This document shows, in pieces, positions 10,543 through 58,084 of a stretch of DNA of 64,000 nt. Where the stretch lies: positions 11,553 through 75,552 of the IMG/VR virus record IMGVR_UViG_3300042309_001835, one strand, 5' to 3'. A model generated the notes under the pieces. The model saw only the letters and a list, made by a program, of their open reading frames with translations. It was not told where the DNA came from and made no database searches. Source of the DNA: a virus. Numbering within the stretch: position 1 is the stretch's first letter; each line of letters opens with the position of its first letter. Both the position numbers and the translations under genes were made by a program.

Positions 10543-12150
10543 ATGCGCTTACATTTGGTCGGCATATTCCACACCAAGCATAAAGCATCATTTAGCCACT
10601 GCGCCTTTACCGGTAAAGCGCTGCGCTTTCCCAAGATGATGCAAAAATATGGTCATCATGTCATTGAATACAGCAACGAAGGCAGTGAAAGCACGGCGGA
10701 CGAACACGTGCAAATACTGAATGCCAGTGAGTTTGATGCACTGTATGGATCACGCAAGTCAACTGACTTTTATGGCGACGATGCCACTATAGGAAGCGCT
10801 GGACATACTGCTTTTGAATCTCGCCTGGTTGATGAACTCAGGGAACGCATTCAACCTCAGGACATCGTGTGTCATCCGTTTGGCCACGCCCACCAGCGCC
10901 TGATGGAAGAATTCCCCGATAACCAACATGTAGAAACCGGTATTGGATATCCGACGCTGATGCCATCCAGCTTCAGGATATTTGAAAGCTATGCCTGGAT
11001 GCACTACCATCAGGGCAAGGAAAACAGAAATGGTCGCAACTATGAATGGGTTGTACCAAATTACTACGACTTGGATGATTGGGATCCGAACTACGAGCCT
11101 GGTCAATACTACGCGTTCTTGGGACGTATCACCAGCCTGAAGGGCATGGATACGTTGCGTGCCATGGCTGACTACCTGAGGTATCCAATCGTCCTGCACG
11201 GCCAAGGGAGCCCAGACAAGTGGGCTCATCCCAACATCGAATACAAAGGCCCCCTGAGTGGTCGTGCCCGCAGTAACTTCTTGGGTGGTGCCAGGGCGCT
11301 GCTTGCACCAACGGTATTTACTGAGCCATTTTGTGGCATGGCCGTTGAGGCAATGTTGTGTGGGACGCCTGTCATCTCAGTGGATTACGGGGCGATGACG
11401 GAAACCGTGCAGCCGGGGATGGGTTTCCGTTGTCACACCCTGCAGGACTGGTTGGAAGCAGCCGATGCGGTTGGCGACCTGGACAGGAAGTTTATCGCCG
11501 ATACCGCCCGTGCCAAATACAGCCTGGAAGCGTGTGGTGCCAAATACGACAAAATCTTCAGGCAAATAAATGATCTGTATCGTAAGGGATGGTACGAAGT
11601 AAGTTATTTCAACTATACGGAAATCGAAACAGAAGAAAAGCCCTTTGCTGATCGCCTGGCGGCATGGATAAAAGAAAACATCGGTCCAGTCCATTGCCTG
11701 GATATTGGATGCGGTCCAGGGACGTATGTTCGCTCACTTCGTAATCTCGGATTGGAAGCCGTTGGTATTGATATCGATGAACGCGTCGACAGCATACCGC
11801 ATCTGTATCGACGTAGCATGTTTGACAGCAAGGCGACGGCAGAATTGGTGCTATGTCTTGAGGTCGCCGAACATATTGACAAGGAACTATCAGCAGAGGT
11901 TGCTCGCTCTGTATGTGATAGCGTCAGGAAGCCAGGGATCTTGATATGGTCTGCGGCCCACCCAGGTCAAGGCGGCGTCGGACACATTAACTGTCAACCA
12001 AAGGAATTCTGGCAGGAACTGTTGGAAGTCAATGGTCTTGTCCGTGACGAAGAACTTGAATCGGAAATGATCGAGGATTTATCGAATGGTTACCATATGG
12101 GATGGTTCGTTCAAAACGCAATGATTTTCAGGAATAACTCAACCCAGTAA
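10543..12150 (+). CDS. GT4-like glycosyltransferase fused to a class I SAM-dependent methyltransferase
   Basis: FLGRITSLKG and EPFCGMAVEAMLCGTPVI (GT-B); LDIGCGPG and CLEVAEH (methyltransferase). Confidence 0.85.
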   Translation: MRLHLVGIFHTKHKASFSHCAFTGKALRFPKMMQKYGHHVIEYSNEGSESTADEHVQILNASEFDALYGSRKSTDFYGDDATIGSAGHTAFESRLVDELRERIQPQDIVCHPFGHAHQRLMEEFPDNQHVETGIGYPTLMPSSFRIFESYAWMHYHQGKENRNGRNYEWVVPNYYDLDDWDPNYEPGQYYAFLGRITSLKGMDTLRAMADYLRYPIVLHGQGSPDKWAHPNIEYKGPLSGRARSNFLGGARALLAPTVFTEPFCGMAVEAMLCGTPVISVDYGAMTETVQPGMGFRCHTLQDWLEAADAVGDLDRKFIADTARAKYSLEACGAKYDKIFRQINDLYRKGWYEVSYFNYTEIETEEKPFADRLAAWIKENIGPVHCLDIGCGPGTYVRSLRNLGLEAVGIDIDERVDSIPHLYRRSMFDSKATAELVLCLEVAEHIDKELSAEVARSVCDSVRKPGILIWSAAHPGQGGVGHINCQPKEFWQELLEVNGLVRDEELESEMIEDLSNGYHMGWFVQNAMIFRNNSTQ

Positions 12151-20427: not shown

Positions 20428-21201
20428 ATGCCCGACTGTATCCCCAATCTCGCAGGTGTCGCAACTAAGAATCTGGTTGAGACGATTGGAACTGGCAGCT
20501 ACAAAGCAAGTTATATCAACTGGGCTCGGACGTTTAACCTGCTGCATGAGCATGCTCCCGGCTGGTACCTGGATGTAGTCCTGTCGCCGGAAGGAGCCGC
20601 TGTCTGGCGGGCACCCGGCAATGGCGGTTATCTGATGCTGCGGTTCTGCCATGTCGATGGCACGTGCCTGGCTCCAGCGCCGCAGGCGATCATGGACAAC
20701 CGGAACGGGTCCATTCCGTTCGACAAGATTTCCGCCAGGGATGTGACCGACACGCACCGCCGTGGTGGCTGCATGCTGGCTGCCATGACATTTGGCCTGG
20801 CGGTTGAGCTGTGGGCGAAGATGCCACTGGAGAGCGGCTACGGACAGGCCCCTGAGGGCGACGCTACGGCCCCTGTAAGCCCCGTAAGCGGCATCCGTGC
20901 CACTACTGCGCCTGCAGCCCCCGCAGAGGCCTTCACGGCCGAAAAACAGGCCACTATGCAGGACTTCCTGGAGGCCTGTCTGGAAAAGGGGCTGTCGCCA
21001 GTGGCGGCAGATAAGTTGCTTGAGGTGATTGGCTCAAATTACGCCGGAGGAATCAAAACCCTTGCCAGCAAGACAGAAGCATGGGTGGTTGAGCAAAACC
21101 AGAAGGCGAATCCCGAGGAATCGGCGCAGCCTCAACAGGAGAAGCCCGCCAAGGCCGTAAAAAAGACTCCCACACAGAAGTCGAATCCAGAAGCGTACTG
21201 A
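20428..21201 (+). CDS. Sak3/DUF1071-like single-strand annealing protein
   Basis: SYINWA...AIMDNRN...DVTDTHRR...AMTFGL..LW pattern. Confidence 0.7.
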   Translation: MPDCIPNLAGVATKNLVETIGTGSYKASYINWARTFNLLHEHAPGWYLDVVLSPEGAAVWRAPGNGGYLMLRFCHVDGTCLAPAPQAIMDNRNGSIPFDKISARDVTDTHRRGGCMLAAMTFGLAVELWAKMPLESGYGQAPEGDATAPVSPVSGIRATTAPAAPAEAFTAEKQATMQDFLEACLEKGLSPVAADKLLEVIGSNYAGGIKTLASKTEAWVVEQNQKANPEESAQPQQEKPAKAVKKTPTQKSNPEAY

Positions 21202-24166: not shown

Positions 24167-25018
24167 ATGGCGACGGTAGCTTACAACCAACCTGATCCCG
24201 ACTACCGCAGAGAGCTGGGGGAGAATCAAAGCTACCTTAAGAATATCTTAATAAGTCCAGCTCATTACAGGGCTGGCAAAAAGAGAAAGTTCGCTCCTAC
24301 CATCAACATGGAGATCGGCTCTGCTTTGCATTGCCTGGTCCTGGAGGGCAAGGAGGAGTTTGATCGTCGCTACATGCTGAAGCCGGAAGACATTTCCCTG
24401 GCCACCAAGGAGGGAAAAGAATGGAAGGCAAGCCAAAAAGGTAAAACAATCCTGACGAATAACGAAAAAGAAAAGGCCTGGGACAGCGTTCATGGCATGG
24501 CCGAATCACTACTGCGCCTGGAGTGGTTCAACCAATCCCAGGTCGATTATCGCAAATACAACGAGCTGTCTATTTACTGGGAAGCGGATGGTATTCCCTG
24601 CAAGGGGCGACTTGACAGACTGGTCGACATGGGCGATCATTTGATGATATTGGATCTCAAGAGCACCGATTCGGTCGAATATAGCACCTTTCTTAAGAAG
24701 CTGGTAGGTGGCATGAATTATCTGTTTCAGTCGGCATGGTACGCAGAGGCCGCCAGTCTTGCGTATAACAAACCATGCAAGTTTGTTTTTGCCGCAATCG
24801 AAAGGACGGAACCGTGGACATTGTCTCTGTTTGAGATTTCAGATGAGATGATGGACGAAGGTAATCGTCAGATCAAGCGAGCGCGGCAGTTGTTGAAAAA
24901 GTGTTTAGATGCCAAGGATTGGCCTCGACCAGAGGTTTGCTATAATGTACTGAGCCTGCCAACTTGGTACCGCTCACCAGTTTCGAACTACAGCCCCGAA
25001 TTTGAGGACTTGTTCTGA
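24167..25018 (+). CDS. RecE/ExoVIII-like PD-(D/E)XK exonuclease
   Basis: GSALHCLVLE, CKGRLD, ILDLKST, YLFQSAWY. Confidence 0.85.
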   Translation: MATVAYNQPDPDYRRELGENQSYLKNILISPAHYRAGKKRKFAPTINMEIGSALHCLVLEGKEEFDRRYMLKPEDISLATKEGKEWKASQKGKTILTNNEKEKAWDSVHGMAESLLRLEWFNQSQVDYRKYNELSIYWEADGIPCKGRLDRLVDMGDHLMILDLKSTDSVEYSTFLKKLVGGMNYLFQSAWYAEAASLAYNKPCKFVFAAIERTEPWTLSLFEISDEMMDEGNRQIKRARQLLKKCLDAKDWPRPEVCYNVLSLPTWYRSPVSNYSPEFEDLF

Positions 25019-46414: not shown

Positions 46415-46777
46415 ATGAACCCTAGTACACTTGTTGCTGCTGGCTTCGCCAACGAACTGGCTGAAGTCCTGGAACTTAAACTGTTGGGAGTTGATGCTGT
46501 TGGTGAAAACTCTTGGGACGATCATGCGCGTCAAGTCCTGGAGGGATACCACAAGACTCTTGACCGGGGCGTGTCGACGTATCTACCGCTTTGGCGTTCA
46601 CTTCATGAAGCCTATAGCTCAATCGACAGAACCAGCCCGCCGTATGTAATCTTTTCCGCGCTGATCACGGCTTTCTGCGATCGAATGGAATCGGATTTCC
46701 CTGTGCATGAAATAGATAAAAGCGTTTTGATTGGTTACTTGCGTGACGAAGCGGAAAAAGCACTGGTTTGTGAGTAA
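46415..46777 (+). CDS. hypothetical protein
   Basis: ATGA-coupled ORF. Confidence 0.5.
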   Translation: MNPSTLVAAGFANELAEVLELKLLGVDAVGENSWDDHARQVLEGYHKTLDRGVSTYLPLWRSLHEAYSSIDRTSPPYVIFSALITAFCDRMESDFPVHEIDKSVLIGYLRDEAEKALVCE

Positions 46778-47142
46778 TGAAGAGTAAATCGAATCGTCTT
46801 GGATTGAATCGAGACGATATGATGACATCCGCAGCCGTTCTGTTTCGTTTGGCAACAGCCCTAAGGAAGAACAATTTACCCAAGATCACACCAGATGAAC
46901 TCGACCACATGGCCCGCACCATCAGAAAGAAGGCAGATTCTAAGTAGAACTATGCCGCGAGCGCCCCACGAGAATGGAGCGCCAATCGTCACTCCGGCGT
47001 GCTGCCCTGCCTGGAAGGCTATCAGGAACCAGCTTGATTGGTATCCTTTTGCTGATTATCCAGATCATGTTTGCATGCCATGTATCGGCCAGTGGCGCGT
47101 TAACCAGTGCCCGTCATGTGGCGCTGATGTTCGCATGTCTGT

Positions 47143-47442
47143 ATGGAGGCTGCCTTGACCAACAAGCGTCAGTTCAACCAACCCCCGCGTGAACTGTTAG
47201 AGCAGTGGGTTGAAGAAGCCGATCAAAAGCTGACGACCCTGGAGGCATGCCAGCACGTCGCTCAGAAGGCCTCTGAGTGGGGTTTCGCCACAGCACTGTG
47301 CCCTGACCCCAATAGCCTGAAACAACGCGCCCTGAGGGGCCTGGAGCGCATCAAGAACCTTGGTGTGGTATCGACATGGGTGGGCAAGGACGTATTTCAA
47401 GTAATCGAGGAGGCCCTGGAGAGTCTGCCAGACAATACATAA
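47143..47442 (+). CDS. modular array family A, divergent copy
   Basis: PPRELLEQW...ASEWG...SLKQRAL...IEEALESLPD. Confidence 0.65.
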   Translation: MEAALTNKRQFNQPPRELLEQWVEEADQKLTTLEACQHVAQKASEWGFATALCPDPNSLKQRALRGLERIKNLGVVSTWVGKDVFQVIEEALESLPDNT

Positions 47443-47527
47443 GCAATACTAATGGTTTGAGGTATTGACCTGCGGGTGTCTAGCGGATAATTTAGATATG
47501 TCCTTAGACGCCAACAGGCTCTTAGCC

Positions 47528-48409
47528 ATGCAGATCACCAAGCCCATGCTCGCCGGAACCTATGACGCCTGTAAGGCGCGTTTCCCTTATATGGCGACTC
47601 CCAAGATTGACGGCATCCGTTTTGTCATGGTCGAGGGTGTTGCCCTGAGTCGTTCGTTTAAGCCGATCCGTAATGCTTACGTGCAAAGCACGCTAAGGAG
47701 CTGCTTGCCGGATGGCGTTGACGGCGAATTGACTTGCGGTGATACGTTCCAGTCGTCATCATCGGCAATCATGTCAACCGATGGCACGCCGGATTTCAAT
47801 TGCTGGATTTTTGATTATGTCGACCCGTTTAGCGATATCGTAGCACCCTATCGAGATCGGATCACTGATCCAGCGCTAGTTGAACTGGAAACTGAGCAGT
47901 TCATTACCATCCTGAAGCCAGAACTGGTTGCCAACGAACAGGAGCTGCGAGCAGTAGAAGAACGTTACCTTGATGCGGGGTTTGAGGGCGTAATGGTGCG
48001 TGACCCGGATGGAGGGTACAAGTTTGGCCGCTCCACGGTCAAAGAGAACACTTTACTGAAAGTGAAGCGTTTTGTTGATGACGAAGCAATCCTGGTCGGA
48101 GTGCTGGAAAAGCAGCACAACATGAACCAAGCCATGCAAGATGCGTTTGGGCGCACAAAGCGCTCTACCAGTCAAGACGGCAAAGTTGGTGCCAATACTG
48201 CTGGTACGTTGGTCGTGCGTAACGCAGATGGCGTTGAGTTTGGTATCGGCACAGGGCTCGATGAGGCCATGCGTGCTAAAATTTGGTCCAATCCTGGTGA
48301 ATTCGTTGGCATGATGGTTAAGTACAAGTATTTTCCCGTTAGCGTCAAGGAGAAGCCGCGACACCCTGTTTTTCTGGGATTTCGCCATCGCGATGATATT
48401 TCGTCATGA
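47528..48409 (+). CDS. ATP-dependent DNA ligase
   Basis: KPMLA, KIDGIR, DGEL, FEGVMVR, LLKVK, PRHPVF. Confidence 0.9.
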   Translation: MQITKPMLAGTYDACKARFPYMATPKIDGIRFVMVEGVALSRSFKPIRNAYVQSTLRSCLPDGVDGELTCGDTFQSSSSAIMSTDGTPDFNCWIFDYVDPFSDIVAPYRDRITDPALVELETEQFITILKPELVANEQELRAVEERYLDAGFEGVMVRDPDGGYKFGRSTVKENTLLKVKRFVDDEAILVGVLEKQHNMNQAMQDAFGRTKRSTSQDGKVGANTAGTLVVRNADGVEFGIGTGLDEAMRAKIWSNPGEFVGMMVKYKYFPVSVKEKPRHPVFLGFRHRDDISS

Positions 48410-48748
48410 ATGCCTCGCTTCTGATCTTCTATTTGCTCTTGTTGTACATTGCATTACTGCAAGCTTCTCAGTAATGCAAGTTACACCACTGATCCTGTTC
48501 TCTGTAGATGAACAAATGCCACCAAACGAATACCGACGCAACGCACGTTTTGATTCTTTGGCAGAGTATGACCACCTTGCTAAGTCAGACGACTTCATCG
48601 AAGTAACCGAATGGCACAACGGTGAAGGTTTTGATGTACACCTTAGTACCAATGCTGGTGAACAACGTATGTCATTTAGCTGGGGTGAGTACCAAGCATT
48701 GAAAGCAACCCTTGGTGACTGGGCTGAAAACAATCTGGAGGATGAAAA

Positions 48749-49069
48749 ATGACTAATCAACACCCGATTACCCCACCACTCGAGCTGTTAAATAAGTGGA
48801 ACAACCTGCCATTAAGCAATCAAGAGATCCTTGTGATTGTCGCCCAATGGGGCGCCGACCAGGAGCTGGCGGCGTGCTGTGAGTGGCTGGAAAACCAGCC
48901 TCAGTGGATGGAAGATCTTCGTTCTGCCCGCCGCCCCAAGCTGCCGAGCTTGAAGGAACAGGCGCTGAAAACGTTGCAAAGGCTGTCCAAAGATGGATTC
49001 CCCTGCAACTATCAAGAATACTCTGATTGGGACACCATCCGCCGCGCACTGGAGGCGCTACCTGAATGA
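48749..49069 (+). CDS. modular array family A1
   Basis: HPITPP / QWGADQEL / ARRPK / LKEQAL / IRRALEALP anchors. Confidence 0.75.
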   Translation: MTNQHPITPPLELLNKWNNLPLSNQEILVIVAQWGADQELAACCEWLENQPQWMEDLRSARRPKLPSLKEQALKTLQRLSKDGFPCNYQEYSDWDTIRRALEALPE

Positions 49070-49413
49070 CTGACAACCACCCGATTACCGTCCCCGCTGG
49101 ATCCATCACCGGATGGAAACTGCTTTATTGTAATTATCAAGGGGATCTTTCTGAAACCGAATATATTGTCCTAAAATCCGCTCAATGGGGCGCCGACAAG
49201 GAGCTGGAGGCGTGCTGTGAATACATTGCCATGAAAGGCAAATGGTTTGCTGACTCACATTTTCGCTTGAAGGAACTTCGCGCCGCCCGCCGCCCTAAGC
49301 CATCGAGCTTGAGGGAGCAGGCGTTAGAAGCCATGCACCGCAACTGGAACCCACGCAACAGCGACGACTTCGACATTATCCGCCGCGCACTGGAGACTCT
49401 GCCCAATGACTGA
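49066..49413 (+). CDS. modular array family A2
   Basis: Same anchors, different intervening segments. Confidence 0.75.
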   Translation: MTDNHPITVPAGSITGWKLLYCNYQGDLSETEYIVLKSAQWGADKELEACCEYIAMKGKWFADSHFRLKELRAARRPKPSSLREQALEAMHRNWNPRNSDDFDIIRRALETLPND

Positions 49414-49756
49414 CCAACATCCCATCACCCCACCGCCGGAGCTGGTGCAGCAGTGGTGGGAGCAAGCCGATCAGTATCAAGACGATCCAAAGACTTACTT
49501 CGACTTTATAGTTACCGAAGTAGCCCAATGGGGTGCGGACCAAGAATTGAAAGCTGTTTGTCAGCTTTTGTTTTCAGACCCGTCAGTTACCTATACCCTT
49601 TCCGACATCCGCGCCGCCAGGCGCCCTAAACCGCCGACGCTGAAGGAGCAGGCTTTGGAGCAACTGGACGGAATCGCAACTGTATTTCGTATGACTCACG
49701 GTGGCAACATCGTGTGCGACAAAATCCTCGCTGCTTTGGAGGCGCTACCCGAATGA
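49406..49756 (+). CDS. modular array family A3
   Basis: Same anchors, different intervening segments. Confidence 0.75.
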   Translation: MTDQHPITPPPELVQQWWEQADQYQDDPKTYFDFIVTEVAQWGADQELKAVCQLLFSDPSVTYTLSDIRAARRPKPPTLKEQALEQLDGIATVFRMTHGGNIVCDKILAALEALPE

Positions 49757-49930
49757 AGCCAGCGCATAAACGGGCTCTCCGTTGCTTTCTTCTTGAGAAA
49801 CTCCGCGAAGTGACGTGTCTACAGTTAAGCGAACTAGCCGAAACTCATGACTGCCAGCCGTTTGATATGGCTGAACAATTTGAGATTGAGGTTGGACGTA
49901 TTGAAAAACTCTTTTGTTACCCGCACTACG

Positions 49931-50188
49931 ATGGCTGAACCTATCTCCCCCGCCGCGCAGGCGGTGCTACGTGCCTACATGAACAACTGTGGTTGGCTAG
50001 ACGGCCCTCTCAAAAAAGACTACCAATGTGCCGCCGCCGTCCTGCGAGCTGCTGCGAATCAGGTGGTGCCACCCAGCCTTGAAACAGAGTTTTACGATCG
50101 CAATCCAAGTTTGACGCTGCAAAAAGCGGTGGAGATCCGCCAGCGTCTGCTCGCCATCGCCGCCGAACTGGAGGGTAACAATGTGTAA
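49931..50188 (+). CDS. modular array family B1
   Basis: SPAAQAVL / LRAAANQVVP / LAIAAELEG anchors. Confidence 0.75.
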   Translation: MAEPISPAAQAVLRAYMNNCGWLDGPLKKDYQCAAAVLRAAANQVVPPSLETEFYDRNPSLTLQKAVEIRQRLLAIAAELEGNNV

Positions 50189-50471
50189 TAAATCGCAGGG
50201 TTTTTACGGTTTGGACGGTATGCTTTCCCCCGCTACTCAAGCAATCATGGTTGCCTGGGAAAGCGAATGGAGTAAGGGAAGTTTTTGCCATGAAGAACGC
50301 TCCGTGGCCGCTGCACTCCGCGCTGCGGCGGATCAGGTGGTGCCGGAAGAGGATTCCTACGAAGGGGGATTCTCAGATTCACTTGAGCACCAATGCCGAG
50401 CATCTGAACGCAGACTTGCTCGCGCCGAACTCCTTGCTCTCGCCGCCGAGCTGGAGGGTGGCAATGACTGA
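50181..50471 (+). CDS. modular array family B2
   Basis: LSPATQA / AAALRAAADQVVP / ALAAELEGGND. Confidence 0.75.
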   Translation: MCNKSQGFYGLDGMLSPATQAIMVAWESEWSKGSFCHEERSVAAALRAAADQVVPEEDSYEGGFSDSLEHQCRASERRLARAELLALAAELEGGND

Positions 50472-50994
50472 CTTTCGTGCGCTGTGCGCTGAGCTGGCTG
50501 ATTCCGTAGAGCTGTTGCTTGAAATGCGGAGCAATGATCGACCGATGCGGGTAACAGAGGATCGCCTTAACCGCGCCCGCGCCGCCCTGGAGGCCCAGCC
50601 CGAGCCGCAGGGGCCAACGGATGAGGAGCTAGAGGATTTCGCACTGCAAAATGGTGGTGGCTATTTCAACTGCGACTGCCAGGAAGAAGCTGACATTCTC
50701 ACCCGGAAACACATGAGCAACTATCGCGCCGTACTCACCCGCTGGGGCCGCCCCGCCATCGAGCCGGTGCCGGTGAGTGAGGGGATGCCTGGCCCGGAGG
50801 ATGTAAACGACGATGGCGAAGTATGGGTCGAAGAGCCCGCTTACGATTATCCGTTGGGTGACACTGGCGATTACGACAGCGAGCCCGGCAGATGGGTGCT
50901 AAAGCCGCTCTCGTCCCTTGATAAGCGCTTCAAACGACGCTGGCTCCCCCACTCGGCGTTGCCGGTGCCTGGGGTGGAGGGTGCCGATGGCTGA
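50464..50994 (+). CDS. modular array family C1
   Basis: MTDFRALCAEL / RARAALEAQPEPQGP / RWGRPAIEPV / WLP..ALPVPG. Confidence 0.75.
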   Translation: MTDFRALCAELADSVELLLEMRSNDRPMRVTEDRLNRARAALEAQPEPQGPTDEELEDFALQNGGGYFNCDCQEEADILTRKHMSNYRAVLTRWGRPAIEPVPVSEGMPGPEDVNDDGEVWVEEPAYDYPLGDTGDYDSEPGRWVLKPLSSLDKRFKRRWLPHSALPVPGVEGADG

Positions 50995-51300
50995 CGCCCT
51001 GCTTGCCCTCGCCCTACTGCTCGCCCTCGGCGCAGCGATTGAGCTGTGCATCAAGGCGATCTTCGTGCGCCTGCTGCCGTTGCTGCTGAGGTTGCCTGGT
51101 AGTTAAACAACCGTACCATCATTTCAAAATGAAAGCAGAAGTCCTGTATGACCCGCTCGCTAACACCTACTGCTGGAAGCTGTGGACAGGTCCAGACGGC
51201 ATTGACGAATATCGTGGTATCGCAGCCTCTATTGGAGAAGCGTTTGAAGCGCTGATTAGAGCAGAAACCATTAACTCTCTTCATTACACAGCATAAAGCA

Positions 51301-51615
51301 ATGACCGAAACCAGACAACTCTCTGACCTGGCGATGGACTTTGACACCAAATACAAAGTTAACGAAAAGCCCGTCAAGCAACAGGAGGAAAAGTTAGCAG
51401 AATACCACTTAAAGTACTGCGGGCCACTCTGGCAGCGCATTGGCGGTAAGACAGGGCCATACGACCTGGGGCCAGGCGAGATCGCAAGTATTTTGAGACT
51501 GATCGCTGACGAGGCAGAGCATCGCGGCGAAATAGACTATGGCCGCGATCCGGGGGAAACTGTTGACTGGCTGCGTTCTCAGGCTATGATTGCAGAGTCC
51601 GCCATAGGCCTTTAG
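51301..51615 (+). CDS. hypothetical protein
   Basis: 104-aa ORF. Confidence 0.5.
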   Translation: MTETRQLSDLAMDFDTKYKVNEKPVKQQEEKLAEYHLKYCGPLWQRIGGKTGPYDLGPGEIASILRLIADEAEHRGEIDYGRDPGETVDWLRSQAMIAESAIGL

Positions 51616-51620
51616 CCATC

Positions 51621-52019
51621 ATGAGACACAGCTTGACCTACGAGTCACTCTTGGCTGACCAGGAGCGTGCCCGTAAAGCATTTGGTTATATGATACGCTC
51701 TTGGCGTATCAGGAACAAGTGGACGCAGTACACTGCTCACAAATGGGCAAAAGAGGCAGGTTTTGAAGCCATTTCATACGGCAATCTGTCTTGCATTGAA
51801 CAAGGCAAGGCCGGTGAGTTACGCCAGAAGGCGTTCTTCCAATTGGAAGAATTGAACAGGCGCCTCAATGCCAAGGATTGGGGAAGCGTTAAAACACAAG
51901 AAATCAAACAAAAATTGGAGCACTCTCAGCCACTGATTGATGACGATGGCAAGCTTTGGGATGCTGTTGATTTTTGGGCTTGCTACGTTGGTTACAAAGC
52001 AACCCCGAAGGTTTGCTAA
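51621..52019 (+). CDS. XRE-like HTH protein
   Basis: FGYMIRSWRIRNKWTQ...ISYGNLSCIEQGK. Confidence 0.65.
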   Translation: MRHSLTYESLLADQERARKAFGYMIRSWRIRNKWTQYTAHKWAKEAGFEAISYGNLSCIEQGKAGELRQKAFFQLEELNRRLNAKDWGSVKTQEIKQKLEHSQPLIDDDGKLWDAVDFWACYVGYKATPKVC

Positions 52020-52071
52020 TGAATAACTGATTTCCGCTATTGTTTAACCTAAGCATCGAAACTTCTTCAAA

Positions 52072-52479
52072 ATGAAAATCAAAAACGGATTCATCGACCC
52101 TGCTTATGCCACCGTTGTTGCCGGCGCAGTCTTGCTACTCGGTCTTGTCTTTGTAGGTGGACCAATGTATAATGTGTGGCAACAATCTCTTGCCGGTAAG
52201 GCAGAACTACAGAAGGCAGAATACACTCGCCAGGTAGCAGTTCTGGAAGCACAAGCAAAGAAAGATAGTGCTCAGCTAAATGCTGATTCTGAGGTGATTC
52301 GTGCGGGTGGCGTTGCCAAAGCAAACCAAATCATTGGTGATTCCCTGAAGGACAACCGCGAGTACCTCCAGTATCTGTACATCACTGGGCTGGAAGAAGG
52401 TTCCAGCAAAGGTAACGTAACCGTCTACGTTCCCACTGAGGGTGGAATGCCTGTTCCTACTCTGCAAATGAACAAATAA
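52072..52479 (+). CDS. membrane-anchored protein resembling an SPFH/Band-7 C-terminus
   Basis: TM helix, AEA-type coiled coil, YLQYLYI...VYVPTEGGMP. Confidence 0.65.
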   Translation: MKIKNGFIDPAYATVVAGAVLLLGLVFVGGPMYNVWQQSLAGKAELQKAEYTRQVAVLEAQAKKDSAQLNADSEVIRAGGVAKANQIIGDSLKDNREYLQYLYITGLEEGSSKGNVTVYVPTEGGMPVPTLQMNK

Positions 52480-52520
52480 TCTGAAAGAATTATCCAGCTT
52501 ACCCTGTCGCTTATCTTTCA

Positions 52521-52778
52521 ATGACTGATTCCAGGTACCCCTACACTCACGCGGCTGATTTCATCCGTCGTGTTGGCCCCGTAAGTAGTTCCGGTGTTGT
52601 TTTGTCGCGTGGCGATGCTTCTGCTATTCGTAGAGCAATTGCAGTTGCGATACAAATAGAAGATTTCAGGTTAGCTTGCATGCTGGCTGATGCTGAACTC
52701 AAGTATCAAGAAAGCTCAGAAGCAGTGCAAAAGGAGACTGAGCGTGTTTTGCGTGCAATCAGGGGGAGGAATCAATGA
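52521..52778 (+). CDS. hypothetical protein
   Basis: SRYPYTHAADFIR motif; ATGA-coupled to A4. Confidence 0.55.
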   Translation: MTDSRYPYTHAADFIRRVGPVSSSGVVLSRGDASAIRRAIAVAIQIEDFRLACMLADAELKYQESSEAVQKETERVLRAIRGRNQ

Positions 52779-53098
52779 CTGATCTGTATTCTTCCACCGT
52801 GCCACCAGCAGTACTGCAAAAATTACGCAGTACAGCTCCAACTTCAGGTTGGCCTCGTGATGCTTGGATTGCTGAGCAAGCCGCCCAATGGGGCGCGGAT
52901 CAAGAATTGGAAGCGTGCTGTGAGTGGTTAGAGAACCAGCCTCAGTGGATGGAAGATCTCCGCGCCGCCCGCCGCCCCAAGCCGCAGACACTAAATAGCA
53001 TTGCGCTGGAAATGCTGGGAACGATTGAAAAAATGGATGTAGTGATTCCAGAGATCACCGACACCATCCGCCGCGCACTGGAGGCGCTTCCTGAATGA
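52775..53098 (+). CDS. modular array family A4
   Basis: QWGADQELEACCEWLENQPQWMEDLRAARRPK ... DTIRRALEALPE. Confidence 0.75.
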   Translation: MTDLYSSTVPPAVLQKLRSTAPTSGWPRDAWIAEQAAQWGADQELEACCEWLENQPQWMEDLRAARRPKPQTLNSIALEMLGTIEKMDVVIPEITDTIRRALEALPE

Positions 53099-53337
53099 GT
53101 GAACCTCTCTCCCCCGCCGCGCAGGCGGTGCTGGATGCTTACATCAATGCTCCATGTGGAAAGTCACGCGGTGTTTGGGTCGCCGCCGCCCTCCGCGCTG
53201 CTGCTGATCAGGTGGTGCCACCTGCTTTAATGTGTGAGTATTACGAGCGCAATGAAAGCCCTGTGTTAGGGAAAGCGCTTGAAATTAGGGGCAAACTCCT
53301 CGCCATCGCCGCCGAGCTGGAGGGTGGCAATGACTGA
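53095..53337 (+). CDS. modular array family B3
   Basis: EPLSPAAQAVL ... LAIAAELEGGND. Confidence 0.75.
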   Translation: MSEPLSPAAQAVLDAYINAPCGKSRGVWVAAALRAAADQVVPPALMCEYYERNESPVLGKALEIRGKLLAIAAELEGGND

Positions 53338-54097
53338 CTTTCGTGCGCTGTGCGCTGAGCTGGTAGACGAGTTGCACTGCTACAAATACGTGCATCCTCA
53401 ACACGACACTGACCTAATTGACCGCGCCCGCGCCGCCCTGGAGGCCCAGCCCGAGCCGCAGGGGCCACCAAAGAATTGCTGGCTCGACGATGAGCCGTAT
53501 CTTTGCCCTAGCCCCTGTGTATTTGACGATCCTTCCGAAGTGATTGACAACTGCTTGGAGGCGCGCCACCTGAGCGAAAAAAACAAACCAAAGGAGGCAT
53601 GTAAGTATTACCGCACTACTGCCCAGCCCGAGCCGGTGGTACTGACCCGCCCCGACTGCTTTAACTTCGCCATGGACTTCTTGGGCGGCACAGAAGAAGT
53701 CGAGGTGCGTAATTACATCGAAAGGCTTGAGTCCGCCGCCCGCGCCGTCCTAGCCCAGCCCGAGCCGCAGGGGCCGACGAATGAGGAGCTGCTGGCATCA
53801 GTGCGTCACTTTTATGGCGATCAGGCTGCTGCCGACATGGGAGCAGAAGACGATCTGCGTACAGCCCGCGCCGTCTTTGCCCGCTGGGGCCGCCCCGCCA
53901 TCGAGCCGGTGTCGGGGAGTGAGCGCCTGCCGGGGCCGGAGGATTGCGATGCGGAGGGAAGGTGTTGGTGGTGGAACTCTTATGAAAACATGTGGGATTT
54001 AATTGACCTTGAGTACCGAGTCCGGGCTGAGTTTCCACATAGCACCCACTGGCTCCCCCGCTGGGCGCTGCCGGTGCCTGGGCTGAAGGGTGAGTGA
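53330..54097 (+). CDS. modular array family C2
   Basis: Same anchors as C1, with three AQPEP modules. Confidence 0.75.
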   Translation: MTDFRALCAELVDELHCYKYVHPQHDTDLIDRARAALEAQPEPQGPPKNCWLDDEPYLCPSPCVFDDPSEVIDNCLEARHLSEKNKPKEACKYYRTTAQPEPVVLTRPDCFNFAMDFLGGTEEVEVRNYIERLESAARAVLAQPEPQGPTNEELLASVRHFYGDQAAADMGAEDDLRTARAVFARWGRPAIEPVSGSERLPGPEDCDAEGRCWWWNSYENMWDLIDLEYRVRAEFPHSTHWLPRWALPVPGLKGE

Positions 54098-54153
54098 CCA
54101 ACACTAGAATCCGCTCAACAGTATAATTGTACTGAACCAGTCAACTGAAACGA

Positions 54154-54819
54154 ATGTATTTTTTGATTGAGCCACTGCTGACATCAGAGCAGTGTAATAC
54201 TTTTTTACGCGCACTTGATGCACCTGAAGCTGATTGGCGTCCTGGGGCTGACACCGCCGGCTGGCATGCCCGCACCGTCAAGCAGAATCAACAGCTAGCA
54301 TCAAATAGCCATTTGCGACACAATCTGGAACAAAAAATCCAAGGCTATTTTCTGGATAATCCGCTGTTTCAAGCTGCTGCTTTCCCGCGTTCAATCCACA
54401 GTATTCTATTCAGTCGTTATAGTGCCGGTCAAAGTTATGGTCGCCATGTAGATAATGCCTGGATGGGCGCCAATCGAAGTGACCTTTCTTTTACGTTGGC
54501 CCTGAACAGTACTGACGACTATACAGGCGGCGAACTGGTACTGGAGCTGCCGACCAAGGAACAGGCATTTCGGCTGCCTCAAGGTCACGCCCTGGTGTAT
54601 CCCAGTACATTATTGCATCGCGTTGAGCCGGTAACCTCAGGGGAGCGGGTGGTAGCGGTGGGATGGACCCAGAGCCGCATACGCCATGCCGATCAACGTG
54701 AATTGCTGTTTGACTTGGATACCGCTCGACGGGCTTTGTTCGGGCGCGGTGGCAAGGATGAATTGTTCGACCTGATCAGTCGCAGCTACACCAACCTGCT
54801 GCGCCGCTGGGACGACTGA
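54154..54819 (+). CDS. PKHD-type Fe(II)/2-oxoglutarate dioxygenase (PiuC/YbiX-like)
   Basis: YGRHVDN, RSDLSFT, YTGGEL, LHRVEPVTSGER, QRELLFDLD, YTNLLRRW. Confidence 0.9.
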   Translation: MYFLIEPLLTSEQCNTFLRALDAPEADWRPGADTAGWHARTVKQNQQLASNSHLRHNLEQKIQGYFLDNPLFQAAAFPRSIHSILFSRYSAGQSYGRHVDNAWMGANRSDLSFTLALNSTDDYTGGELVLELPTKEQAFRLPQGHALVYPSTLLHRVEPVTSGERVVAVGWTQSRIRHADQRELLFDLDTARRALFGRGGKDELFDLISRSYTNLLRRWDD

Positions 54820-57907: not shown

Positions 57908-58084
57908 ATGATTGTAATCCCAACAGAACAGATCGATGAATGGGATTCAGAATATGACAGATTGCAACTGAGCAAACAGGTCTCACGCATCTCGTTCATG
58001 GCGCATTGTGCAGCAGTGTGGGGCTACGACCAGGGCTTAACAGCAATGGACCAATTGTTCAGAACAGATCCAGAATTGGAATAA
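57908..58084 (+). CDS. distant half-length relative of array family A
   Basis: Read manually: IPTEQIDEW...AAVWGYDQGL. Confidence 0.45.
   Translation: MIVIPTEQIDEWDSEYDRLQLSKQVSRISFMAHCAAVWGYDQGLTAMDQLFRTDPELE

Follow-up and report, generated by a model that had tools for sequence, protein, structure and literature searches.

The window analysed here is a stretch of 64,000 nt from the IMG/VR virus record IMGVR_UViG_3300042309_001835, spanning bases 11553-75552 of the 75,552-bp record (estimated completeness, 100%). Between positions 47143 and 54097 it carries an array of short genes on the plus strand, which are composed of variable modules separated by short conserved connectors, or anchors. 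Comparison with about 190 related viral loci carrying the same families (designated by L numbers) indicates that the array is probably one sample of a combinatorial repertoire maintained at the population level. The small, acidic modules are likely to be exchanged by homologous recombination at DNA-conserved connectors during co-infection. DNA and protein matches place the phage among phages of Synechococcus-type picocyanobacteria. Matches to bacterial genome bins are few and comprise uncultured Synechococcus and Cyanobium bins, plus one Gammaproteobacteria bin.

The array contains ten genes of three families, A, B, and C, as a sequence-only reading of the window had proposed. A2 to A5 match phrog_32006 with E values of 1.7e-21 to 1.5e-28 over profile positions 2-114 of 116, and this family is found at five places in the whole genome. 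B1 to B3 match each other in tblastn, as do C1 and C2. The gene order given by that reading is right, but four further coupled genes, X, E, D, and Y, were not listed. The complete order is A1-ligase-(X)-A2-A3-A4-(E)-B1-B2-C1-(D), followed by (Y)-A5-B3-C2. The junctions overlap by a 4-nt ATGA or an 8-nt ATGACTGA. Because X, E, and D are coupled in the same manner as the listed genes, the first block forms one unbroken run, X-A2-A3-A4-E-B1-B2-C1-D.

Family A includes A2 (48749-49069, 106 aa, E 3.7e-23 to phrog_32006), A3 (49066-49413, 115 aa, all-helical in the predicted model, E 1.5e-28), A4 (49406-49756, 116 aa, E 6e-28), and A5 (52775-53098, 107 aa, E 1.7e-21). The middle module of A2 is shared with A5 at 85% identity over 107 nt. 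A1 (47143-47442, 99 aa) is a diverged member that matches the profile partially (E 2.8e-4) and A2 and A4 in tblastn (E 1e-4); its synonymous sites are near saturation relative to the other A genes. Family B consists of B1 (49931-50188, 85 aa, 61% identical to B3 in tblastn, E 2e-20), B2 (50181-50471, 96 aa, E 3e-6 to B1 and B3, with B anchors present), and B3 (53095-53337, 80 aa), both variable modules of which occur with other partners. Family C consists of C1 (50464-50994, 176 aa) and C2 (53330-54097, 255 aa); alignment and repeat families show that C2 contains extra middle modules and three copies of a QPEP connector. In picocyanobacterial phages, these are three very large and uncharacterised families of proteins. 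Homologues number more than 5500 for A (A3), 2600 for B (B3), and 1200 for C (C1), nearly all of them unnamed metagenome proteins. The exact A3 protein occurs on 12 contigs and the exact C1 protein on 2.

The four additional genes were identified as open reading frames (ORFs). X (48474-48752, 92 aa) is ATGA-coupled to A2. Its 3' part is 91.6% identical to L085, and X-like genes adjoin A genes in other loci. E (49753-49938, 61 aa) is coupled to A4 through ATGA and to B1 through an 8-nt overlap. The stretch around E (49737-49969) recurs at 94-95% identity in L070, L146, and L166, and the gene order A, E, B is seen again in L070, L146, and L150. Y (52521-52778, 85 aa) is ATGA-coupled to A5, for which its 3' end holds the ribosome-binding motif GGGGGAGG. 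X, E, and Y may represent additional module families. D (50987-51106) encodes a hydrophobic peptide of 39 aa, overlaps the C1 stop (ATGGCTGA), and closes the chain; it is not present after C2. Its frame is open in 31 distinct homologues, its grand average of hydropathy is 1.74, and its DNA is 90-96% identical in more than 40 viral loci, the similarity breaking off sharply on the right at 51096. D may be a small membrane peptide with which the cassette ends.

The connectors are nearly identical in DNA. The four repeats quoted in the sequence-only reading are present as described: 58 of 58 nt across the B/C junction (50440-50497 and 53306-53363), 47 of 47 nt (50570-50616 and 53421-53467), 32 of 32 nt (50738-50769 and 53880-53911), and 38 of 39 nt (49031-49069 and 53060-53098). 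These four pairs have a GC content of 64-85%, and exact repeats of 32-58 nt inside 9.5 kb cannot be due to chance. A repeat search of the array region returned 15 families of direct repeats, which correspond to the anchors, and only four, weak inverted pairs. Anchors are GC-richer than the intervening segments, in agreement with the earlier description. The GC fraction at third codon positions (GC3) is 0.70 in anchor codons versus 0.56 in variable codons (Fisher p = 4e-7), and that at the first two positions (GC12) is 0.62 versus 0.50.

Two types of connector can be distinguished. The first is an in-frame helix end followed by a proline-rich linker (WGADQEL, RRPKPPSLKEQAL, AQPEPQGP, RWGRPAIEP). 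The second is a gene junction: the GGAGG ribosome-binding site of the next gene and its overlapping stop/start are contained in the final codons (..ALEALPE, ..AELEGGND) of the gene before it. GGAGG lies 7-11 nt upstream of nearly every coupled start, within the last conserved codons of the previous gene, and the ATG start is preceded by a GGAG-type motif in almost every copy, A1 being the exception. Because GGAGG is located in the junction anchors, these are under an added translational constraint to which the internal anchors are not subject.

C1 contains four anchors. Anchor 1 (50427-50502) is the B-end/C-start junction and contains the ribosome-binding site with GGAGG 7-11 nt before the start codon, the ATGACTGA overlap, and the conserved N terminus of C; the repeat search located its second copy at 53293-53368. 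Anchor 2 (50569-50616) encodes a helix end and the AQPEPQGP linker and includes the 47-nt exact repeat. Its counterpart in C2 lies at 53420-53470, with a third copy at 53727-53776, and its 23-nt core is exact in at least 120 viral contigs. Anchor 3 (50725-50805) runs from a helix end through the RWGRPAIEP linker into the β domain. It is 86% identical to 53867-53944, and its counterpart in C2 (53867-53947) was defined by the repeat search and by comparison with L010. Within it lies the 32-nt exact core, and a 26-nt core is exact in 74 viral contigs. Anchor 4 (50940-50983) encodes the WLP..ALPVPG tail, holds the ribosome-binding site for D, and is 89% identical to 54049-54092.

The A and B genes are punctuated in the same way. 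The A anchor WGADQELEACC (48839-48889) has copies at 49177-49227, 49520-49570, and 52880-52930, and many high-identity tracts shared with other loci begin within it, at 48841. The A anchor RAARRPKPPSLKEQAL (48917-48976) has copies at 49273-49335, 49607-49666, and 52958-53017. The A-end/A-start junction anchor (49031-49095), which encodes IRRALEALPE, the stop/start, and MTD with a ribosome-binding motif inside, is repeated at 49372-49435, 49718-49760, and 53060-53102. The B anchor AAALRAAADQVVP (50027-50077; copies at 50301-50347 and 53176-53226) is nearly invariant across 68 homologues.

The anchors are conserved beyond the protein level. This was assessed with 141 A, 143 B, and 185 C non-identical ORFs, by the pairwise probability of an identical codon at conserved degenerate columns. 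In anchors, the probability is 0.63 (A), 0.67 (B), and 0.75 (C), whereas the codon usage of the variable parts predicts 0.30-0.31. It remains 0.59 (A), 0.63 (B), and 0.72 (C) among representatives that are less than 50% identical. Since A or B DNA played no part in choosing the loci, the A and B values are unbiased. C anchors 1 and 4, which were not used in locus selection either, have non-preferred codons fixed across loci. As a control, ordinary genes common to the phage and the same loci, including the ligase at 59-77% amino-acid identity, give 0.28-0.52, close to saturation. The synonymous sites of the anchors are therefore not saturated, given that codon reuse is about twice the expectation even below 50% identity. 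Within the window, identical residues in the pairs A2-A3, A2-A5, B1-B3, and C1-C2 also share their codon at roughly double the expected frequency (55 of 74 in one example, versus about 25). Pairs with A1 or A4 are near expectation. This mixed codon reuse implies that the anchors are old as protein motifs and that some copies have a recent DNA ancestry.

The pairs with A1 and A4 (9-22 same codons versus 8-19 expected) are what would be anticipated if the array consisted of ordinary paralogue families, in which the blocks are protein motifs, fast-evolving loops fill the intervening segments, and recent duplication and codon bias account for the DNA identity. Such an origin would also fit the abundance of Ala, Arg, Pro, and Gly in the anchors, which raises their GC content at the first two codon positions. 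However, it is very unlikely in view of the twofold codon reuse across phages, the fixation of non-preferred codons, the recurrence of unalignable, length-variable modules at 95-99% identity in other combinations, and the explicit recombinants described below (L010 alone and L010 versus L007), which contradict it.

The same codon data bear on whether the connectors are conserved for a nucleic-acid function, be it translational coupling, mRNA structure, or a regulatory site, with recombination being incidental. Junction connectors do hold GGAGG at ribosome-binding distance and an overlapping stop/start, and even the internal C anchor 2 contains CTGGAGG. But synonymous sites are just as conserved in the internal A and B connectors, which are remote from any start. 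No Rfam family is found in 46500-54500, and neither promoter-like sites (7 versus 7.0 expected) nor terminator-like sites (9 versus 10.3 expected) are enriched. Moreover, a nucleic-acid function accounts for conservation, not for reassortment, and we regard it as a highly improbable explanation of the array.

Reassortment is extensive. When 112 distinct full-length C proteins are cut at the anchors and each segment is clustered, the three segments fall into 56, 64, and 34 types that form 108 combinations, close to linkage equilibrium; since the set was gathered by similarity to C1, these module counts are biased and are indicative, not exact. Adjacent variable segments are thus incongruent, as the sequence-only reading had anticipated, with four-gamete violations in every pair of segments (1, 13, and 40). 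C proteins with the same first module share the second module in 4% of cases, against a baseline of 1.9%. In an alignment of 55 C proteins, the first module of C1 is paired with many second and third modules, and the same holds for its other modules. The reassortment pattern in families A and B is alike, as judged by eye. The variable segments are mutually unalignable and differ in length.

For each module of the array, another locus has a counterpart that is 90-99% identical but lies between different neighbours. For example, the A2 stretch 48841-48966 is 98.4% identical to L150 with different flanks. The first variable module of A4 (49424-49549) is 95.2% identical to L060, L109, and L173, and L011 and L020 match the 3' half of B1 (50032-50183) at 96%. 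Gene order is not fixed as A-B-C, an arrangement also considered: in the other loci, B-then-C and C-then-B adjacencies are about equally frequent (52 and 53), and only A tends to be first.

Modules also cross family boundaries. The chimeras in L021 (6001-6445) and L068 (minus strand, ORF 10963-11338 in strand coordinates) are single ORFs that combine C-type N-terminal modules with an A-type C-terminal module. They are joined at proline-rich connectors, the joining point being the A anchor RAARRPKPPSLKEQAL. This suggests one pool of modules, in which a connector is either an in-frame linker or a stop/start junction. The end of A genes (LEALPE, stop, then MTD) resembles the C linker LEAQPEPQGPTD, a likeness that, on sequence grounds, would fit a single pool.

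Several recombinants can be traced individually, and their breakpoints fall in anchors. A 72-kb phage (L006) is 99.4% identical to the window over 514 nt, from position 50583 inside C anchor 2 to the end of D, with no other similarity in the 6-kb flanks. The C gene of L010 resembles C2 at first, with 90% identity over 851 nt, and C1 thereafter, with 95.7% identity over 372 nt. It changes from one to the other within a 28-nt stretch that is identical in all three genes and lies inside C anchor 3. In window coordinates, the stretch that is 90% identical to L010 is 53107-53944, in B3 and C2, after which L010 goes on as C1.

L010 and L007 are about 97% identical on both sides of unrelated segments of 373 and 345 nt. 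The replaced segments are bounded on the left by the B/C junction anchor (50427-50502 in the window) and on the right by a QPEP anchor, corresponding to the third copy of C anchor 2 (53727-53776). L024 and L011 display a replacement of the same kind. One of the regions L007:6001-6776 and L010:5626-6429 holds a single long C gene and the other a short two-module C gene plus a second C start; module fusion or fission thus accompanies the replacement. More generally, tracts of 90% identity or more have 42 distinct ends, of which 30 are no further than 3 nt from an anchor when anchors are defined on the window only; the expected share is 47% (p = 0.0014). Most of the remaining ends lie at family-level anchors outside this window-based definition.

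Short-read assemblers could in principle mis-join related phages at exact connectors and thereby create the appearance of shuffling. Exact connectors common to many co-occurring phages do tangle assembly graphs, and nearly all of the evidence comes from IMG/VR contigs. Yet the connectors, at 23-58 nt, are below typical read and final k-mer sizes, and mosaics that are 97-100% identical have been assembled independently. L007 and L008, from different metagenomes, are 100% identical over 8.1 kb including the mosaic, and the pairs L011/L020 and L012/L013 match at 97-99.7%. The exact A3 and C1 proteins recur on separate contigs, as noted above, and in the cultured siphovirus S-CBS2, gp065 and gp066 are an A-B pair joined by the same ATGACTGA junction. 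An assembly artefact, an outcome that would have undone the sequence-only reading, is consequently very improbable. The families span phage types, since an A gene adjoins the primase/helicase of the T7-like S-RIP1 and other members are found in S-CBS2 and on contigs of 125-243 kb.

A further question is whether the exchange takes place within one lineage, by programmed high-frequency diversification in which cassettes are converted among paralogues in the style of pilin, Vls, shufflon, or diversity-generating retroelement (DGR) systems. Several paralogues of this genome do have exact connectors in common, and the repeat families make A5 and B3 look chimeric relative to the first cluster. The phage also has recombination enzymes of its own. 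An ORF at 24230-24931 on the plus strand encodes a RecE-like PD-(D/E)XK exonuclease, a candidate component of the recombination machinery, with a solid match to PF12684 (DUF3799; E 1.2e-28, above the curated cut-off). A Sak3-like annealase had also been proposed; the match exists (PF06378, SSAP_Sak, at 20449-20805 on the plus strand; E 3.8e-4, 15.8 bits) but is below the family cut-off, and the protein is a possible Sak-type single-strand annealing protein.

Programmed diversification is nevertheless very improbable. The entire 75.5-kb genome has no match to reverse transcriptase (RVT_1) or to tyrosine (Phage_integrase) or serine (Resolvase) recombinases, which extends to the whole genome what had been stated for the window. 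There are no silent donor cassettes, and nearly all copies have their own ribosome-binding site and start. The mosaic is also unchanged between independent samples. In addition, the C1-C2 connector identity of 0.89 ranks 14th of 132 in comparison with C genes of other phages (median 0.82). C1 and C2 connectors are no more alike than those of many C genes from other phages, and there is therefore no sign of programmed conversion within the genome. The proposal that anchors serve as crossover points for module swapping is supported between genomes by population data and recombinants; within one genome, such swapping is hypothetical.

Recombination between co-infecting phages at conserved connectors thus appears the most satisfactory explanation, and a plausible course can be outlined. 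Some modules (A, B, D, X, and E) would be translationally coupled genes of their own and others would be fused into multi-domain genes (C), with connectors conserved as DNA across a large picocyanobacterial phage pool. Co-infecting phages would recombine at near-identical connectors of 25-60 nt, swapping modules while keeping frame and coupling, probably with the assistance of the phage exonuclease and annealase pair. Many old, unalignable module types would persist, probably through diversifying or frequency-dependent selection. Recombination would re-homogenise the connectors and leave their synonymous sites unsaturated, and it may also make them GC-richer. The repertoire would then arise at the level of the population and not by programmed switching inside one genome.

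Several points weigh against this explanation. Nearly all of the comparative evidence is from metagenome-assembled contigs, and the C set has the sampling bias mentioned above. The connectors could be conserved for protein or translation reasons and merely be exploited by recombination; the junction anchors are constrained in any case by the ribosome-binding site and the overlapping stop/start. The annealase match is weak, and the C1-C2 connector comparison provides no evidence of paralogue exchange inside this genome. Finally, searches of the proteins return no recognisable domain or fold. No Pfam match at or near the cut-offs was obtained for the ten array proteins or for 55 C and 74 A homologues. 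The AlphaFold2 models of C1 and A3 searched with Foldseek against the PDB, and that of C1 against BFVD, gave nothing at E <= 0.001.

A stronger proposition is that the connectors are kept by selection as recombination handles, so that the array would be a natural DNA-shuffling system. Annealase-driven exchange, among co-infecting phages as well as among paralogues, would then build a combinatorial library of multi-domain acidic effectors against variable host defences or rival phages. We consider this unlikely. If true, the handle proposition would describe a population-level analogue of antigenic variation in non-structural genes, across cyanophages of siphovirus, podovirus, and myovirus size.

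The predicted structure of C1 (mean predicted local distance difference test score, pLDDT, of 79) has a helical hairpin at residues 4-44 and a helical domain at 53-94, each followed by a linker, and then a small β domain at 119-148. In this model, the anchors are at the helix ends, the linkers, and the C-terminal tail. The A3 model (mean pLDDT 80.7) consists of five helices. A, B, C, X, and E proteins are all acidic, with isoelectric points of 4.3-6.3 (4.3 for X), and D is hydrophobic. The ratio of nonsynonymous to synonymous substitution (dN/dS) within module types is 0-0.12 in four of the five segments tested, D included (0.12, four sequences), though the samples are small. Because of these low ratios, most modules look like functional domains and not junk. 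The β module of C1 has a within-type dN/dS of 0.60.

Searches for remote homologues gave few leads. In PHROGs, only family A matched, with no function attached. A wide VIA-align search with the A3 model reached a best Z of 5.2, on helical hairpins, and profiles of A and B against PDB sequences returned nothing better than E 0.78. The C profile matched a syntaxin helical bundle marginally (E 7e-4 against PDB sequences), which was taken to reflect coiled-helix composition and set aside. The β domain of C has a feature match of 0.82 to DUF551 (PF04448) in the ESM Atlas, which is a lead only, and DUF551 proteins appear at ranks 27, 34, and 41 in the BFVD search with C1 (E 0.6-0.75). The DUF551 hidden Markov model itself has no match in the genome at E <= 10, nor among 55 members of the C family. 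A full-text literature search found no description of families A, B, and C. As a working guess, the array proteins would be non-structural, expressed along with the replication and recombination genes, and would bind variable host or rival-phage targets, in host takeover or anti-defence. The families are good candidates for such roles, in hosts of ecological importance, because their ancient module types, near linkage equilibrium, and purifying selection inside most types resemble the traces of an arms-race interface.

The array is situated among replication and recombination genes, with a ligase, a phosphoesterase, and a 2-oxoglutarate (2OG) oxygenase as neighbours. The region 50001-54000 has a GC content of 0.54-0.55, compared with 0.45-0.52 in most of the genome, and contains a AATGACTGAC gene junction. 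Between the two arrays, at 52072-52479, lies a gene for an SPFH/band-7-like 'protease subunit' (phrog_11227, E 6e-52). Its DNA is 77-83% identical to genes of the cyanomyoviruses S-SZBM1 and S-PM2, a resemblance suggestive of exchange across phage types. An A-like ORF of half length (57908-58084, plus strand, 58 aa) is located outside the array, 4 kb past its end. It matches phrog_32006 (E 5.9e-4) and A4 in tblastn (E 3.6e-4), contains an N-terminal A module and a WGYDQ motif, and is ATGA-coupled to the preceding ORF.

The array has a bearing on the origin of phage mosaicism, which has been viewed either as homologous exchange at short conserved sequences or as random illegitimate joining filtered by selection. 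Hundreds of natural recombinants have their junctions in DNA-conserved connectors. The question is directly testable here, because such recombinants are many and the genes are small enough to be recoded and crossed. The layout of conserved linkers and variable domains could also be a template for engineered domain shuffling.

Neisseria pilE/pilS and Borrelia vlsE combine one expression site with silent donor copies in one genome. The array resembles them in that invariant segments serve as homology anchors between variable mini-cassettes and exchange is segmental. It differs in that all copies appear expressible from their sequence, and in that exchange is seen between genomes and not within one. 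DGR systems have a reverse transcriptase and a template/variable repeat pair that differs at adenines; this genome has no RVT_1 match, and its variable segments are unalignable and variable in length instead of being A-mutated copies. Shufflons rely on a site-specific tyrosine or serine recombinase and on inverted crossover sites; this genome has no Phage_integrase or Resolvase match, and its repeats are direct.

The modular theory of Botstein invokes conserved linker sequences. Relaxed homologous recombination, driven by Rad52-like recombinases that phages encode, is a source of mosaicism (De Paepe et al. 2014, PMC3945230). The likeness is that diverged phages exchange at short identity, with a phage exonuclease and annealase as the likely agents. 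In the array, however, the units are sub-gene modules of 60-150 nt, and the homology blocks are kept population-wide, on more than 100 contigs and in several phage morphotypes. PeSL cassettes mediate the shuffling of small early genes in T4-type phages, according to the summary of Arbiol et al. 2010 given in PMC3157838. As portrayed there, short conserved sequences likewise flank small, non-essential genes of hyperplastic regions, and whole genes are shuffled. A PeSL, in that summary, is an intergenic promoter and stem-loop, whereas array genes overlap by 4-8 nt and leave no intergenic space. Set against that same account, the junction blocks of the array are coding overlaps with a ribosome-binding site, and promoters are not enriched.

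The closest parallel is found in the adhesins of T-even phages. Tetart and colleagues reportedly described in 1998 that these proteins consist of conserved motifs alternating with hypervariable segments. In gp37 and gp38, hypervariable segments are interrupted by glycine-rich motifs or His boxes, and it is in or close to these conserved motifs that exchanges occur (Trojet et al. 2011, PMC3157838). The array shares with gp38 both the short conserved motifs between hypervariable segments and the recombinants that cross over in the motifs. In the T-even system the result is a set of combinatorial recognition determinants. The array has no sequence or fold homology to gp37 or gp38 (in Pfam, or in PDB and BFVD at E <= 0.001), does not lie in a tail-fibre locus, and is taken not to be virion-associated. 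Small acidic proteins of several families are encoded in coupled arrays, and linkers and gene junctions, instead of a structural core, act as the connectors. Motif-mediated module shuffling is a known principle, best known from the T-even adhesins; the array works likewise, without being a member of that system.

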